From Escherichia coli (lineage in GTDB: Bacteria > Pseudomonadota > Gammaproteobacteria > Enterobacterales > Enterobacteriaceae), in assembly GCF_041248615.1 (NCBI RefSeq), contig NZ_CP158426.1: DNA of 64,000 nucleotides, one strand, 5' to 3'. The position numbers were made by a program, and so were the translations under genes. The notes under the pieces are model-generated. The model saw only the letters and a program-made list of their open reading frames with translations. It was not told the origin of the DNA and did not search any database. Below are positions 42,297 to 51,490 of the stretch, piece after piece. The first letter of the stretch is position 1; each line of letters begins with the position of its first letter.

Positions 42297-42466
42297 AATG
42301 GCTCACTCAAGCTTGCTCACGATTGATTCCAGTAACAAACCGTATTGTGTAATTATTTCTATAGCAGTTCGCTATATAGGCTTGTATACATCGAATAATT
42401 TGAAAATCAAAGAGATAGGTAGATTTTCACTCGAAAGTAGTATTACGTGTAAGTGAGGAGTAATTA

Positions 42467-42480
42467 TTGTTCGGTATCAA
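42467..42480. promoter_or_regulatory. candidate FNR-box-like dyad upstream of dmsA
   Basis: TTGTTcggtATCAA matches TTGAT-N4-ATCAA with one mismatch; position relative to the true dmsA transcription start not verified. Confidence 0.3.
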
Positions 42481-42592
42481 AGGGAGACAAAAAAAGCGCC
42501 CGCAGGAGATTTAACGGTACTTACTCCTCTTGCTGATTTCCTTATTTTTCAATAAGTAAACAAAAACAAGGGGAGCAAATTATCACAAATAA

Positions 42593-43597
42593 TTACTGGT
42601 CGATGGACAGTTTATGGACACTTTCAGCCAGCGGATTAAAGCTGATCGCATCCTGTAAAAAGTCCGGTGAAAAATGCGCATACGTCATCGTTTGCTGAAT
42701 CGTGGCGTGACCCAGGATCCTCTGCAACGTGACGATGTTCCCGCCGTTCATCATGAAATGCGTGGCGAACGTGTGCCGCATGACATGCGTGGCCTGCCCT
42801 TTGGGTAAGTCGGGCTTCACCTCCTGAAGGATCTCCCTGAAACTGAGATAATCAACCTGATATAACAGGCCGGTCCGGCGGGTTTTAATTAACGGCACAA
42901 CGGAATCAGCTACAGGAACCGAGCGCGATTTCCCGTTCTTTGTGTTAAAGAACGTCACCCTGTTACCCACGATGTGTTCCCCGCGAAGCGTTGACGCCTC
43001 TTTCCATCTGGCCCCGGTCGAAAGGCACAGAATGGCAATGCGTCGTGCATCACCCTCAAGCCGTTTCAGAAGGCGATCAATCTCGTCATCTGAAAGAAAG
43101 GCCATTTCTGTATTCTGAACCTTGAGTTTACGTATTCCGCGCACAGGGTTTTCGTTATGATAAACCTCCGCGTCAATTAACAACGAAAACATCGCAGATA
43201 AGGCGCACAGGTCGCGATTGATACTGGACGGCATCAGTCCCGCCTGCAACTTATCCGAGCGATACTCAATCACGAATTTTCGTGTCATCTGGCTGGCGCG
43301 CGGGTCCCCCATTTCACGTATCACCTTCTCCAGTCTGGTTCTGTAGGTATCACCATATGCCTGATTACGACCATCAAGCATCCACCACACCTCAATCAGT
43401 TCTGATAACCGCCGTTGATCGGCGGGCCTTGCCTGCCACGGGTTATTGTGGAAATTCTGAAGAACGTATCTTTCGAATTCCTGCGCCTTTGATTTCAGGG
43501 TGAAAATCTTACGAATCCGCCTTCCTCCCGCCCCCTGAGGCCTTACATCAACCTGATAACGTCCGTCTTTGAGTTGCTTAATCGACATGATCAGCAC
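42593..43597 (-). CDS. int: tyrosine-type phage integrase (P2 Int-like)
   Basis: 334 aa ORF; C-terminal HxxR...Y catalytic motifs (VMRHTFATHF, LGHATIQQTMTYAHF); N-terminus IKQLKDGRYQVDVRP resembles P2 Int; adjacent to host junction. Confidence 0.85.
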   Translation of the reverse strand: MLIMSIKQLKDGRYQVDVRPQGAGGRRIRKIFTLKSKAQEFERYVLQNFHNNPWQARPADQRRLSELIEVWWMLDGRNQAYGDTYRTRLEKVIREMGDPRASQMTRKFVIEYRSDKLQAGLMPSSINRDLCALSAMFSLLIDAEVYHNENPVRGIRKLKVQNTEMAFLSDDEIDRLLKRLEGDARRIAILCLSTGARWKEASTLRGEHIVGNRVTFFNTKNGKSRSVPVADSVVPLIKTRRTGLLYQVDYLSFREILQEVKPDLPKGQATHVMRHTFATHFMMNGGNIVTLQRILGHATIQQTMTYAHFSPDFLQDAISFNPLAESVHKLSIDQ

Positions 43598-46675: not shown

Positions 46676-47158
46676 TTATCGGGAAAAACCGATCGTAATG
46701 GCAGCCATCATCTTTTCAGCGAAAGAGAGAGATTCACGATGACTGATATTCAGAGACATACAGGCTTTGTTGTACGCCACATTTTCCATGCATTCCAGGA
46801 CAGGAGAGTCATGCATCTCAAGCTCTGGAAGGCGTGCCAGCAGAGCTTCCGTACTGAGGAGGGCGCTTTTGGTAATCAACTCATTGTAGCGATGGGCATG
46901 CTCACTCGCCGCCTGCGCACGTTGCCCGAAACGACATATGAAATTACAGGCTCCGAGAACCACCACCACTGCCCCAAGCACCCAGCCGAAATGCCAGCCG
47001 GCTACGATGAACGCACCCGCCGCAAGGATCAAAATGTTGATGATCGCATCAAGGCGACGATTGAATACCGCCGCGATGCGCTCCAGCCAGTAGCTGTACC
47101 AGAGACGGAACATGACCTCATCCCGTTCTCTCGATTTTTTACGTTGGTTGTTTTGCAT
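46676..47158 (-). CDS. hypothetical membrane protein, opposite orientation within early region (160 aa)
   Basis: ORF with basic N-terminus and long hydrophobic segment AIINILILAAGAFIVAGWHFGWVLGAVVVVLGACNFI; RBS-like gaggga upstream; the overlapping plus-strand ORF 46658-47293 is His-rich and judged a shadow. Confidence 0.45.
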   Translation of the reverse strand: MQNNQRKKSRERDEVMFRLWYSYWLERIAAVFNRRLDAIINILILAAGAFIVAGWHFGWVLGAVVVVLGACNFICRFGQRAQAASEHAHRYNELITKSALLSTEALLARLPELEMHDSPVLECMENVAYNKACMSLNISHRESLSFAEKMMAAITIGFSR

Positions 47159-47392
47159 GGTGTTTTATCCCTCATCGTCATCGCTCTGCCCCTAATCAGC
47201 GCAGAGTGCAGGGTAACCTGGCTCGTGGAATTTTTGCAGCCAGACATCTTTACCCCCGGGCGTGTTGAACAAAGTGTCCGCCAGATCCACTGAACGGCGG
47301 ATTCATCAATGCTAACACGCCCTTCTTTTCCGGTTGAAGGCGAAAAAACCGGACCATTACCCCGACACAAAACAGAACAACGGAGAACAACT

Positions 47393-47947
47393 ATGCCCGC
47401 ACTTAAACCTATGGGTGTATCAGGTGTACCACCGAAGCATGTCAGAGCCTGGACACAACAGGAAGATGCTCTACTGGTCGGTTTATACCCCTCCCACACC
47501 GTACCAGAACTGACAAAACACTTTCAGAGAACCGGGCCAGCAATACGAAGCCGCATCCGTCTTTTGCTCTCTCAGGGGGTTATCCACACCAAACAACCCC
47601 CCCTGAATACAAAAGAACTCAACACGCTCATCAGGAATCGCCACACAAAAACCATCCGGGAACTCGCGAATGAACTGGGGCGCTCGACATCCACGGTGGG
47701 ACTGAACCTGAGAAAAAGAGGGTACCGGTTCAGGAAATACGGGGAACTCCACCACAGAGCCAGATACAGCGATCACCTGGTGGAGTTGGTAACTGAACTG
47801 CGCGATGAACAGGGGATGACATTCAGCGAAATCAGAAAGTACATCCGGGACATGGCCGGGATATCCCTTAAAAGATGGGTCCTCGCCCGGCTTTACGCAC
47901 GATATACCGCCGCTGACACCGTGCTTTGCGAACTGCTACCGGACTGA
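47393..47947 (+). CDS. hypothetical protein, possible DNA-binding (184 aa)
   Basis: ORF 47309-47947; start placed at MPALKPMG with RBS ggag upstream; basic, helix-rich segments. Confidence 0.4.
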   Translation: MPALKPMGVSGVPPKHVRAWTQQEDALLVGLYPSHTVPELTKHFQRTGPAIRSRIRLLLSQGVIHTKQPPLNTKELNTLIRNRHTKTIRELANELGRSTSTVGLNLRKRGYRFRKYGELHHRARYSDHLVELVTELRDEQGMTFSEIRKYIRDMAGISLKRWVLARLYARYTAADTVLCELLPD

Positions 47948-48036
47948 GTAACCACTATGCACACACAAAAAAACCGCTTGCCATGCCGCAATCAGTCAGG
48001 TTACATTTCCGCTGCACCTCATAAAACGGGTGCCGG

Positions 48037-48260
48037 GATTGCAACCCCCGCTGACAACTACAGCGCACAACCGCGCCAGCGGTTTTTTTGTGCGTACCGT
48101 ATCGCCACGTCTTTTTCGCGCCAGAATTATGGCGGGGCGTATGGGGCCGACTTCGGTCGGGCCGGTTTCTGTAGTTGCCGGTGGTTGCAACCCTGTACGT
48201 CTCGCCACCCAGAATTGCAACCTCTGGATGGTGAGTTTTCAAAACTTGCAACTACAGAGG
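48037..48260. repeat. non-coding repeat cluster (TTGCAAC and CAACTACAG motifs, with hairpins)
   Basis: TTGCAAC at about 48040, 48185, 48216, 48247; CAACTACAG at about 48054 and 48250 with inverted copy tgtagttg at about 48171; ccgacttcggtcgg tetraloop-type hairpin at about 48145. Confidence 0.5.
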
Positions 48261-48267
48261 CCACACC

Positions 48268-48492
48268 ATGGCAAACCGCAAACAACAGCGCGCATACGCT
48301 GCGCGTCGTCACATCCAGACTGAAATCAACCGCAGACTTTTCCGCGCATTCCGCGTCGCGCATATCATGCACATCAATATGCTGCATGAGCGCAGCCACG
48401 CACTGTCAAACATGTATTCCGCCGCTGTATTCAGCTACCTGGCGGATGACCTGCGCGAGCTGCAGGACCTCATTAACCAGCACCACCACTAA
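48268..48492 (+). CDS. hypothetical protein (74 aa)
   Basis: ORF with RBS agagg upstream, downstream of repeat cluster. Confidence 0.4.
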   Translation: MANRKQQRAYAARRHIQTEINRRLFRAFRVAHIMHINMLHERSHALSNMYSAAVFSYLADDLRELQDLINQHHH

Positions 48493-48560
48493 TCAACATC
48501 CCGGAGCCATCCCGCCCCCGTACGCGGGAGGCTTCCGCACGTCCGTTTCCGGAGGTTCTC

Positions 48561-48974
48561 ATGAAGAGCGTTAAGGGACTTTCAGATATTCAGGATTTTT
48601 TTAACTGGATGTGGGCGGTGGATCCACGCCTCGCTTCCCGTCTCAATGACCTGCACGACTATTACCGCCGCGCCTGTAAACAGGCAGCCCGCAGCGCTGC
48701 CACATACGGGGATTTTTCCTTCACCGTTGACGACCGTTACCGCGTGGATGTCAGAGACCAGAACCACAGCCTGGAGCTGGGCCTGTTCCACATCAACGGG
48801 TGCGACAGCAGCGTTATCAGCTGGTCATCGTCAGAAATGGTGCTCGTTCTGGAAATGACCACCCACAGCGTGGTCGTGAAAGGGATTAAAACAGCAGAAG
48901 ACTTTATCGCTGAATACCAGCGCCTTCTTGTGCTGTACCGGGCTGCATTTCAGAAGGCAACAGCAGGGGAGTAA
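48561..48974 (+). CDS. hypothetical protein immediately upstream of gene A (137 aa)
   Basis: ORF ending 5 nt before gene A start. Confidence 0.45.
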   Translation: MKSVKGLSDIQDFFNWMWAVDPRLASRLNDLHDYYRRACKQAARSAATYGDFSFTVDDRYRVDVRDQNHSLELGLFHINGCDSSVISWSSSEMVLVLEMTTHSVVVKGIKTAEDFIAEYQRLLVLYRAAFQKATAGE

Positions 48975-48979
48975 GCGGA

Positions 48980-51490
48980 ATGAGCCATCACCACACGCAC
49001 CTGGCGTACCCGTGGAACGCCCCGCTGCCGGTTATTGATCCTGAGACATTCGGCAGAGCATTACCGCAGAAGCCAACCGCATTACAACGGGCAATCCGTG
49101 ACTACCTCACCGAAGACATTCGCACTGAGGCCCGGCTGGATGAAGAAACCGTGGCCTTCCTGACAACCACGGACAAAGGTAAGCAAATTAATTCACACCT
49201 TCACCGGGACGAAGAGCGGCAGATAAGGCTGGATAAGCTGGCACGACACAGACGCGAAAATCCGCCAACGGCGGTATCGGAGGCGATAGCCGAACTTCGC
49301 ACCCTGCCCTCGTTTCTTGCCAGTGTGTTGATCCGTGATCTGGCACGACTGAACCGGAAACAGCAAAGTGCCCGCAGTGAAGGTGTAAAAAACAACAGCG
49401 CATACGTGGCCGATAATTTCGTTCGCCGTGGACTGCGTGCGCGCCTGAAACGTATTGAAAGGGTTAACGACCGCTTTGCAACGCCGGCATTCAAAACCAC
49501 CGTCGTGCGCCATCGCCTTGAAGAACTGCTCACACTGCCGCAACTCACCCGTGACGAAATCCAGCGCATCGCCACACTGACAGCCCAGGCATTCGCCGCA
49601 GAATTTGAACGCATATGTGATGAAGTTCTTGAACGGACAGGCAAGGATAATGACAGCCCGGTTATCTGGCTGCTGGCCTACCAGAAGGTGGCACGCACAG
49701 CCTTAATTCTGGGCATGGTCCCGCCATACTGGCCGGAACTCGAAATCAGGCACAACCGACGCACACCGCCGGACCCTGAACGGGTTCCGGGTGCGGTACT
49801 GCGCATCACCTGCGCGACCTGGTGGAACAACCAGTTACGCCACGTCGCCGATCTCTGGCGGGAGGAGTTACTGCGCGCCGCCGGCAGAGTGTCACGTAAA
49901 CAATCCCCCTATATCAGCCATGAGTCACTACTGGAGTTCCGCGAGAAGCGCCAGCGCACCTGTGACTTTCTCAAAAGCTGGGATATTGAAAACGAAGACG
50001 GCGAGCGCCTGAGTCTGGAGGACGTGTACTGGGCTGGCCTGGGTAATCCACGCAACCGCCGCAATGAAATGATGGTCTGCGTCAGAGGGATGGAGATGGT
50101 GGCCGAATTACGGGCTGACGTCGCATTCTTCATCACAGTAACCACCCCTTCCCGCTTTCACAGCGTGAACGAGAACGGCAGCCTGAACCCGAAATACAAC
50201 GGTGCCACAGTACGAGATGCCAGTGATTATCTGGTTTACGACTTCTTCGCAGCCGTAAGAAAAAAAATAAAAAAAGAGGGGCTGGGCTGGTACGGCGTGC
50301 GAACCGCTGAGCCACACCATGACGGCACGCCACACTGGCATATGCTGGTATTCACTTCCCCGGAGAACGCAGAGCGCATCATCGAAATTATGCGCGAAGC
50401 AGCAATTAAATCAGATCGCCACGAACTGGGGGACGATATTTCACCGCGCTTTAAATGCGAGAAGATAGACCCGGAAAAAGGCACACCGGCAAGCTATATC
50501 GCAACCTATATCGGTAAGAACCTGGACGCCAGCGCTTTCCACAACAATGATCCGAAAACCGGAAAACCTTACGTTGATGAGGAATCCGGGAAAACCATGG
50601 CGGAAACCGTGGAGAACGCCATTGCCTGGGCAAGCCTTCACCGCATCCGTCAGTTCCAGTTTTTCGGCATTCCGCCCCGCCAGGTATGGCGTGAACTCCG
50701 CCGCCTTGCAAGCCAGATGGAGCGCAACCCGGCATCACCGAAGCACCTCGATCATGACGATATTGACGCCATTATGGCTGCCGCAGATGTGGGATGTTTT
50801 GCCACCTACATCATGAAACAGGGTGGTGTGCTCATTCCGCGCAACCAGTATCTGGTCCGCACCGCATACGAAACCGCAGACGAAGCCAACGACTACGGTG
50901 AATTCCCTCAACGTATCTACGGAATCTGCGCCCCGTCGCTCGGAGAGCGGTACACCATATGCACCCATCCGGACGAGTGGAAACTGGTTAAAAAAGAAAC
51001 AACACCAGACAACCGCACGGGCGAGGGTTTTGACCTTCATGGCGACCCCGTCGCCCCTTGGACTCGTGGCAATAACTGTCCCCGGGATGAAAAAACAGAC
51101 AATCACGGACCAGAAAACAGGCAGGACCCCGGACGACTGACGCTTCCCGAAGAGAACCTGGAAAGCTGGCTGAATACGTTAAGCAGGGGCGATCGGAGAA
51201 AACTGCGTAATCAGATTAAAAATCAGCCGTCGGGCGCAAAAACCGGACAAAACGACACCACACCGGCATCTGACACCCCTGTAAGGGTGGGGATTGTCGT
51301 GCCTGCGGATACCGCGACGGACACGCAAATCGCCCGCGAACTTGATGCGCTGGGTGTGCAGTTGCCTGACGCGGCCATCATCTCCGTGCGTAACGGTGCC
51401 CGTGTGCGTCTGGATAACGGGGGAACAGCGTACTGGGATGAGTCAGCCCGTCACATCATCACAGAGCAGCCAGTGGAGGCGGGAGCATGA
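48980..51490 (+). CDS. A: replication initiation endonuclease, P2 gpA-like (rolling-circle)
   Basis: 836 aa ORF in the gene A position; HUH-type GTPHWHMLVF motif. Confidence 0.8.
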   Translation: MSHHHTHLAYPWNAPLPVIDPETFGRALPQKPTALQRAIRDYLTEDIRTEARLDEETVAFLTTTDKGKQINSHLHRDEERQIRLDKLARHRRENPPTAVSEAIAELRTLPSFLASVLIRDLARLNRKQQSARSEGVKNNSAYVADNFVRRGLRARLKRIERVNDRFATPAFKTTVVRHRLEELLTLPQLTRDEIQRIATLTAQAFAAEFERICDEVLERTGKDNDSPVIWLLAYQKVARTALILGMVPPYWPELEIRHNRRTPPDPERVPGAVLRITCATWWNNQLRHVADLWREELLRAAGRVSRKQSPYISHESLLEFREKRQRTCDFLKSWDIENEDGERLSLEDVYWAGLGNPRNRRNEMMVCVRGMEMVAELRADVAFFITVTTPSRFHSVNENGSLNPKYNGATVRDASDYLVYDFFAAVRKKIKKEGLGWYGVRTAEPHHDGTPHWHMLVFTSPENAERIIEIMREAAIKSDRHELGDDISPRFKCEKIDPEKGTPASYIATYIGKNLDASAFHNNDPKTGKPYVDEESGKTMAETVENAIAWASLHRIRQFQFFGIPPRQVWRELRRLASQMERNPASPKHLDHDDIDAIMAAADVGCFATYIMKQGGVLIPRNQYLVRTAYETADEANDYGEFPQRIYGICAPSLGERYTICTHPDEWKLVKKETTPDNRTGEGFDLHGDPVAPWTRGNNCPRDEKTDNHGPENRQDPGRLTLPEENLESWLNTLSRGDRRKLRNQIKNQPSGAKTGQNDTTPASDTPVRVGIVVPADTATDTQIARELDALGVQLPDAAIISVRNGARVRLDNGGTAYWDESARHIITEQPVEAGA

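Follow-up and report, generated by a model that had tools for sequence, protein, structure and literature searches.

In the early operon of a P2-like prophage of Escherichia coli, a segment of about 220 bp (48037-48260) very probably forms an antisense-RNA immunity switch of the type found in P4 (seqA/CI/seqC) and in immI of P1 (c4). The segment was analysed within a stretch of 64,000 nucleotides of contig NZ_CP158426.1 (RefSeq assembly GCF_041248615.1), which is called the window below; positions are those of the window, and features lie on the + strand unless stated otherwise. Two RNAs encoded there are members of the curated Rfam families isrK and C4, and the repeated motifs that had drawn attention to the segment are, judged by their complementarity, the antisense/target pairs of an IsrK-C4 system. 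The most likely function is RNA immunity that blocks an epsilon-like gene, and probably also the replication gene A, in lysogens. The anatomy of the module was derived from the sequence and from comparisons with relatives, and the dynamic steps were inferred from P4, P1 and Gifsy-1.

The host element is a P2-like prophage of the P88/Xuanwuvirus type inserted beside dmsA. Its genes include an integrase, a P2 C-type repressor (35% identity to P2 C, E = 2e-24), Cox, an early operon, endonuclease A, and head and tail genes of the P2 type. The nearest named phages were P88 and other members of Xuanwuvirus, with 88-94% identity over the segment. The segment had been described as occupying a gap between early ORFs, and it does sit in a gap of the RefSeq annotation, between a 212-aa gene ending at 47947 and a 74-aa gene starting at 48268. 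No tRNA or tmRNA was detected in the 64-kb window. When the early region of P2 was searched for an isrK/C4 module, no Rfam matches were obtained at E <= 1, and the P88-like lineage was thus taken to have gained the module. The early operon of the prophage in the window is broken up, upstream of the module, by a gene on the minus strand (46676-47158), which complicates the read-through model given below.

The first of the two RNAs is a leader of the IsrK/seqA type (48014-48089), which matched Rfam RF01394 at 60.1 bits (gathering score 50) over model positions 1-77 of 77; the seqA leader of P4 scored 60.8 bits on the same model. The leader is made up of hairpin 1 (48014-48033), hairpin 2 (48034-48050), the single-stranded a1 element and an intrinsic terminator. 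The last of these (48069-48089) was located with a terminator scan as a GC-rich stem at 48069-48084 with the previously reported T7 run right behind it at 48083-48089, and it coincides with the 3' hairpin of the isrK model. A putative sigma-70-like promoter (47978-48007; TTGCCA, an 18-nt spacer and TACATT, with 9 of 12 consensus matches) ends 7 nt before position 1 of the isrK model, and transcription is predicted to start at about 48014. The promoter-like sequence was identical in five P2-like relatives, and a Stx2a phage carries a different promoter-like site (TTGACT-17-TATATT, 10 of 12 consensus matches) at the same relative place. The features of the segment were found where the preliminary description had placed them, but the extent had been drawn too short: the promoter-like site and the first leader hairpin lie to the left of 48037, and the functional unit begins about 60 nt upstream of that edge.

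The second RNA (48125-48212) is of the C4/CI antisense type. It matched Rfam RF01695 at 80.1 bits (gathering score 45) over model positions 1-87 of 87; the CI RNA of P4 scored 74.9 bits on this model, and P88 matched both RF01394 and RF01695. The RNA consists of a 17-bp closing stem (48130-48146 with 48191-48207), hairpins 1 and 2, and the 3' tail CCCAG. For comparison, 120 viral contigs with a C4 core were retrieved. An alignment of 50 C4 sequences of variable length with MAFFT and RNAalifold recovered hairpins 1 and 2 and, in part, the closing stem; because indels were misaligned in that set, covariation was measured on 19 gapless homologues of 88 nt. All 27 pairs of the fold held in these 19 sequences (513 of 513 cells paired, against 31-49% in slid controls), compensatory changes on both sides were present at 12 of the 27, and the covariation score was 0.548 against 0.07-0.10 for the slid controls. 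The CCGAC-TTCG-GTCGG tetraloop hairpin noticed earlier is hairpin 1 of this RNA (CCGAC-UUCG-GUCGG, 48147-48160); four pairs of its stem are variable, each with 19-32 double changes and none broken among 50 homologues. RNAs of the C4 family are stable, about 77-80 nt long, cut from a longer precursor and expressed in lysogens, and the 5' ends of C4/CI RNAs are made by RNase P in P1 and P4. Here the tRNA-like 17-bp stem is followed by CCCA, and C84 and C85 are invariant in the C4 alignment (A3).

Folding of the 262 nt from 48014 to 48275 gave -112.4 kcal/mol against -88.4 +/- 5.2 kcal/mol for shuffled sequences (z = -4.66), in keeping with the earlier mention of stable hairpins. One of the possibilities raised at that time was a structured small RNA. 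The structured RNA was borne out by the two full-length covariance-model matches and by the compensatory changes in the C4 stems; the singular was not, for the module contains two RNA genes together with their targets in cis.

The targets fall into two kinds, a and b, each with an upstream copy in the leader, a downstream copy before the epsilon-like gene and an inverted copy in the C4 RNA. The b1 target, TTGCAACC (48039-48046), is complementary to b' and is exposed by the loop of leader hairpin 2; the a1 target, CAACTACAG (48055-48063), is single-stranded between that hairpin and the terminator. In the C4 RNA, the a' element is the loop of hairpin 2, UUUCUGUAGUUG (48166-48177), whose core CTGTAGTTG (48169-48177) is an inverted copy of CAACTACAG, and the b' element is the palindromic linker GGUUGCAACC (48183-48192), single-stranded between hairpin 2 and the closing stem. 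Past the C4 RNA, the minimum-free-energy fold places b2 (TTGCAACC, 48215-48222) in the loop of a CCAGA...UCUGG hairpin (48209-48227), and the a2 target (48246-48260, with CAACTACAGA at 48249-48258) overlaps the Shine-Dalgarno sequence AGAGG (48256-48260). The complements to the C4 RNA are exact over 9-10 nt for a' and over 8 nt for b'. Duplexes were predicted at -14.6 kcal/mol for a' with a2 and -11.9 kcal/mol with a1, and at -12.1 kcal/mol for b' with b2 and -16.6 kcal/mol with b1. The predicted 12-bp a'/a2 duplex covers the Shine-Dalgarno sequence, which lies 7 nt before the ATG at 48268.

The same arrangement was found in other phage genomes. The a2 element continues into GGAG at 96 viral loci, 78 of which have a start codon 7-10 nt further on. 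The spacing of the sites is fixed, with b1 and then a1 about 15 nt apart upstream, a2 about 40 nt past the 3' end of the C4 RNA and b2, at nearly all loci, about 8 nt past it. Across 72 distinct viral loci, 88-96% had complements of at least 6 nt to their own a' and b' upstream and downstream, against 12-19% when loops were borrowed from other loci. Predicted duplexes averaged -24 to -26 kcal/mol for own elements, against about -13.6 kcal/mol for non-own ones. Six close relatives have near-identical flanks, yet a'/a1/a2 and b'/b1/b2 change together among them. Thus P88 has the a element of the window with TTTCCAC/GTGGAAA as its b elements, and Shae_phiSM has TTGGAAC/GTTCCAA as b elements and CAACCAAAG/CTTTGGTTG as a elements. 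The 72 combinations comprised 60 loops and 33 linkers, and one loop was paired with up to five linkers. Because all three copies of an element vary jointly from relative to relative, the a and b elements are taken to determine what the switch recognises.

These elements account for the repeats as first listed. The four copies of TTGCAAC were located on the + strand at 48039, 48185, 48215 and 48246, the fourth being a2 with TTG in front. Over the whole window the heptamer occurs at the level of chance (17 found and 16 expected on both strands), but 4 of the 12 + strand copies fall inside 214 nt, for which the other 8 predict about 0.03 by a Poisson estimate. The direct and inverted copies of CAACTACAG were likewise present, at 48055 and 48249 on the + strand and inverted at 48169-48177; the 64 kb hold just these three copies of the 9-mer against 0.32 expected, and none of 100 shuffles gave three.

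The gene that follows a2 (48268-48492, 74 aa) is labelled 'derepression protein' in RefSeq, and its product is a homologue of epsilon, the helper-derepression protein of P4. The match to Pfam PF25738 was borderline (27.2 bits with a cut-off of 27), the P88 orthologue scoring 31.8 bits and P4 epsilon 170 bits; aligned with P4 epsilon, the protein showed 29% identity (E = 1e-7). Since the repressor of the prophage is a homologue of P2 C, a candidate target exists for the epsilon-like protein. The next genes are a 137-aa ORF with no family match (48561-48974) and the P2-type replication endonuclease A (48980-51490; Phage_GPA, 346.8 bits; 32% identity to P2 gpA), and both are probably under the same control as the epsilon-like gene. 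The 137-aa ORF was compared with orf151 of P4 and rejected as a homologue, the two having no similarity (E = 0.62). Pfam matches among 49 non-redundant genes standing first after a2 were mostly to anti-repressor types: Bro-N in 6, Rha in 3, Derepression in 3, ORF6N in 2, and AntA and KilA-N in 1 each. Many of the others are about 64 aa long and lack a Pfam match; the first ORF past a2 in P4 itself, which we take to correspond to kil (Icd-like), is one of these. No Icd, AntA, Bro-N or KilA-N domain was detected in the first downstream genes of the window, namely the epsilon-like gene and the 137-aa ORF.

The whole module is traversed by an 'eta-like' read-through ORF of 205 codons (47957-48574), taken from the ORF list with a predicted translation. 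It begins 9 nt after the 212-aa gene upstream has ended, runs on through the first 14 nt of the next gene, and encloses the promoter-like site, both RNAs and, in another frame, the entire epsilon-like gene. The segment had been called non-coding, which needs qualifying in that the 205-codon frame spans all of it and has stayed open in relatives, among them every P88-like one. More widely, a forward frame was open across the module at 74 of 96 loci (46 of 60 flank clusters), against 21 of 96 (16 of 60) for the reverse strand and 24% for shuffles. The window differs from P88 by two 1-nt indels, one at b1 and one at b2, so that the reading frames of the two disagree over about 57 codons spanning both RNAs; by BLASTP the N-terminus of the ORF product was identical, the middle unrelated and the C-terminal part largely conserved. 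Given this shift, the protein-coding constraint that would have told against the earlier description was not found at the amino-acid level. It thus seems from these alignments that selection acts on translatability through the region, not on protein sequence. According to passages of PMC10111431, eta of P4 contains a constitutive promoter whose transcript is brought to termination by way of CI and seqA; this termination is prevented when Eta is translated from a promoter further upstream. In P4 as in the window an ORF reads through the RNAs, with a promoter inside it in P4 and a promoter-like site inside it in the window.

An open frame of this kind might also mean that a real protein is made from the segment, either one of the 'Ash'/Eta type or the 205-aa product itself, and that the repeats are incidental to coding. 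In addition to openness far above chance, this reading can draw on the annotation of this ORF as a 205-aa protein in one phage record, on 'hypothetical protein' or 'ash family protein' calls over the stretch in another phage record and some E. coli records, and on a weak match of a + strand ORF to Pfam Phage_ASH (14.6 bits, under the cut-off of 26). It is nevertheless very unlikely, because the residues of the frame-shifted codons are unrelated between two phages in which both sides are conserved, stem substitutions compensate one another in the RNA, and no ORF of the stretch matched a family above threshold. A real protein behind the six-frame ORFs that overlap the segment was rejected on the last of these grounds and on the shift of frame between relatives. 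The other two suggestions of the preliminary description, a protein-binding array and an accessory replication origin with iterons, start from several short repeats within about 220 bp beside a replication gene, and GTTGCAAC is palindromic like many pairs of operator half-sites. The b element of relatives is not palindromic, however, and the outer copies of each motif always have their reverse complement in the middle, which is the signature of RNA-RNA pairing. The elements fall exactly in the loops and linkers of the two Rfam-matched folds and change in concert while the flanks stay constant; the G+C content is 0.58-0.62 and there is no AT-rich unwinding stretch; and the annotated ori nick site of P2, the prototype of the family, is inside gene A. 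Both suggestions were accordingly dropped, and an array or origin is regarded as exceedingly improbable.

A more serious competitor of the immunity switch is an activator of the Gifsy-1 type. In the published model for Gifsy-1, IsrK activates in trans, with translational coupling through orf45 (Hershko-Shalev et al.). Applied to the window, the leader acting in trans would open a read-through transcript paired in cis and so turn on translation of the anti-repressor-like gene. Regulation would on this view be exerted by the leader, and the C4 segment would chiefly be a stretch of mRNA. The window resembles the isrK-orf45/STnc1160-anrP region of Gifsy-1 in having an IsrK-family leader with its terminator, read-through into a C4-like segment and then an anti-repressor-type gene, and in the pairing of the leader in cis with the downstream segment. 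In the minimum-free-energy fold of the read-through transcript, a1 and b1 of the leader pair with a' and b' of the C4 segment, and this cis fold corresponds to 'structure A' of Hershko-Shalev et al. In Gifsy-1, moreover, IsrK in trans raised translation of anrP about 100-fold and was needed for prophage induction. That the short IsrK of Gifsy-1 activates, rather than represses, a downstream anti-repressor is a counter-point to the immunity reading. The differences are that Gifsy-1 is lambdoid, that the gene regulated there is AnrP, and that the orf45 coupling geometry is not conserved in the window. A conserved ORF of the 'orf45' type coupled to the downstream start was searched for and rejected as a general feature: in no more than 6 of 71 loci does the ORF beginning at the C4 AUG stop in overlap with the downstream start, in the window its stop lies 56 nt past that start, and an ATG is missing at this place from 15 of 86 loci. 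The conserved, covarying C4 fold points to a discrete C4 RNA, as does STnc1160, a stable processed species known in Salmonella. As an account of the module the activator is possible but doubtful, and it complements the immunity model and does not exclude immunity. A cis-pairing layer like that of Gifsy-1 may, on the folding predictions, operate here too.

For the preferred reading, an antisense-RNA immunity switch, the following course of events is proposed. In the lysogen the internal promoter would fire constitutively, and most transcripts would end at the leader terminator and yield the short leader. Read-through transcripts would give rise to a stable C4 RNA of about 80 nt, with its 5' end presumably produced by RNase P acting on the tRNA-like stem followed by CCCA. 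Pairing of this RNA with a2 and b2 would block translation of the epsilon-like gene, and the untranslated RNA would then be terminated before gene A, probably by Rho. A resident prophage would silence an incoming phage with the same a/b code in the same way. In the lytic cycle the early promoter upstream would supply transcripts that are translated through the module by way of the frame at 47957-48574; such translation would open up the terminator and the structures of the targets and allow gene A to be expressed, as with Eta of P4.

Published findings on P4 and P1 immunity are, where a source is given, cited second-hand through PMC3632133, PMC10111431 and PMC8546580. The immunity region of P4 matched both Rfam models too, with their order and strand as in the window and with two sets of targets flanking the antisense RNA, and the left operon of P4 shares the succession of leader, CI RNA, epsilon homologue and then the replication gene of the element. 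P4 is a satellite with the alpha primase, whereas the element in the window is a complete P2-like phage with a C/Cox switch and the rolling-circle initiator gpA. The window also lacks a kil/icd-like gene of 64/65 aa, a2 being placed directly at the epsilon-like gene, and its read-through ORF and first regulated gene are read in different frames. The lack of a kil/icd-type gene between the C4 RNA and the epsilon-like gene is a further counter-point to the immunity reading. With immI of P1/P7 the window shares the RNA family RF01695, the recognition of two sets of targets by a' and b', the downstream set being at the ribosome-binding site, and the proposed logic of an RNA that holds an anti-repressor function in check. 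It differs from immI in that its downstream gene is epsilon-like and not Icd/Ant, and in that its upstream targets lie in an IsrK-type leader with a terminator of its own. As no icd or ant gene is present, membership in a P1 immI operon was ruled out; the module would work like immI but is no immI operon.

The system is already known and is here only lacking an annotation; any Rfam scan detects the module. Passages of PMC3632133 describe the IsrK-C4 system for P4, P1, P7, N15 and some lambdoid prophages. With both RNAs assigned to curated Rfam families, and with earlier work on the system in P4, P1/P7 and Gifsy-1, its detection in the window has little value as a discovery. A literature search found no paper on the RNA module in P88/Xuanwuvirus phages. 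The P2-like prophage Sp13 of E. coli O157:H7 Sakai was noted in 2009 to carry a homologue of P4 epsilon (PMC2669165); the passages of that article found by a term search make no mention of an RNA module upstream of it. The P2-like prophage of the O157:H7 strain NE122, which is assumed to correspond to Sp13, contains the same module at about 87% identity, with different a and b specificities. Of 5426 complete E. coli genomes, 1192 contained a close relative of the module, and so did 141 phage records. The RefSeq record of the window has no RNA feature at the module, and among the records listed there was none either; where these are annotated, an ORF called 'hypothetical protein' or 'ash family protein' lies over the RNAs.

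By sharing a satellite-type module, P88/Xuanwuvirus helpers might have acquired a second-immunity or self-induction layer over C/Cox, or the module might be an arena of RNA conflict between helper and satellite; this idea is speculative and quite unlikely. If the former applied, it might explain the unexpected inducibility of Sp13 by mitomycin. If the latter did, match or mismatch of the a and b elements would decide whether the CI RNA of a satellite silences the replication gene of the helper, or the reverse, and the freely recombining a' and b' elements would be the product of an arms race. As regards the P2-like group itself, many prophages seem to keep an epsilon-type anti-repressor, and probably the replication initiator, under the control of a specificity-coded antisense RNA, which has a bearing on prophage inducibility, superinfection immunity and helper-satellite interactions.

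The Pfam family PF10554 ('Phage_ASH') served as the 'epsilon' marker in a published census of P4-like satellites (PMC8628076). P4 epsilon gave no match to PF10554 and was assigned instead to PF25738 (170 bits). The obsolete 'cI ORF' of P4 (L122 8168-8584, minus strand) was matched by PF10554 at 59.7 bits, and the matched residues are what results when the CI RNA gene and its seqC side are conceptually translated. A weak PF10554 match was located in the window at 48030-48323 (plus strand), and E. coli annotations of an 'ash family protein' overlie the isrK-C4 RNA region. Because the P4 'cI ORF' is matched and epsilon is not, and the 'ash' calls fall over the RNA region, PF10554 may, judging from these matches, track the eta/CI-RNA locus, not epsilon.

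'Hypothetical protein' CDSs directly overlie both RNA genes, on either strand, in deposited phage annotations. The call in phage P88 (L123 5033-5221, minus strand) found no support in the present analysis. That in vB_EcoM-569R5 (L125 1501-2118, plus strand) corresponds to the read-through frame, the counterpart of window 47957-48574.

The isrK-C4 module was also found, at 76% identity, in lambdoid Stx2a-converting phages, which made up 64 of the 141 matched phage records. In one of these, Stx2_131990, the module (L124 2465-2740) comes with a promoter-like site and an a/b code of its own, the loop of hairpin 1 is ACAA rather than UUCG, and the deposited record carries no annotation at the module.

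The genes of the early operon share one orientation except immediately upstream of the RNA module, where the operon is broken by an ORF of about 146-160 aa (46676-47158, minus strand) with a weak SLATT-domain match (E = 0.006) and by a gene for an HTH-like 'DNA-binding protein' of 212 aa (47309-47947, plus strand). Since other genes occupy the same spot in P88, the O157 prophage and Shae_phiSM, the position appears to hold variable cargo ('moron') genes. The enterobacterial sRNA STnc130 is matched over its full length by Rfam (125.8 bits; 42387-42521, plus strand) in the interval that separates dmsA from the integrase gene of the prophage (minus strand, about 42593-43588). The prophage must consequently end within the STnc130 gene or no more than about 70 nt from its 3' end, which suggests a phage attachment site at the sRNA locus.

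Among the C4-bearing viral loci (L002-L121) the a' loop and b' linker assort independently: 60 distinct a' loops and 33 distinct b' linkers occur in 72 combinations, one a' loop, TTTCCAATAAGG, being found with five different b' linkers. Such mixing points to recombination between the two C4 specificity determinants. The first a2-controlled gene of one viral locus (alignment A1) encodes a domain resembling Tad2 (Thoeris anti-defence 2; E = 1.1e-6), which places a predicted anti-defence gene under antisense-RNA immunity control in that locus.
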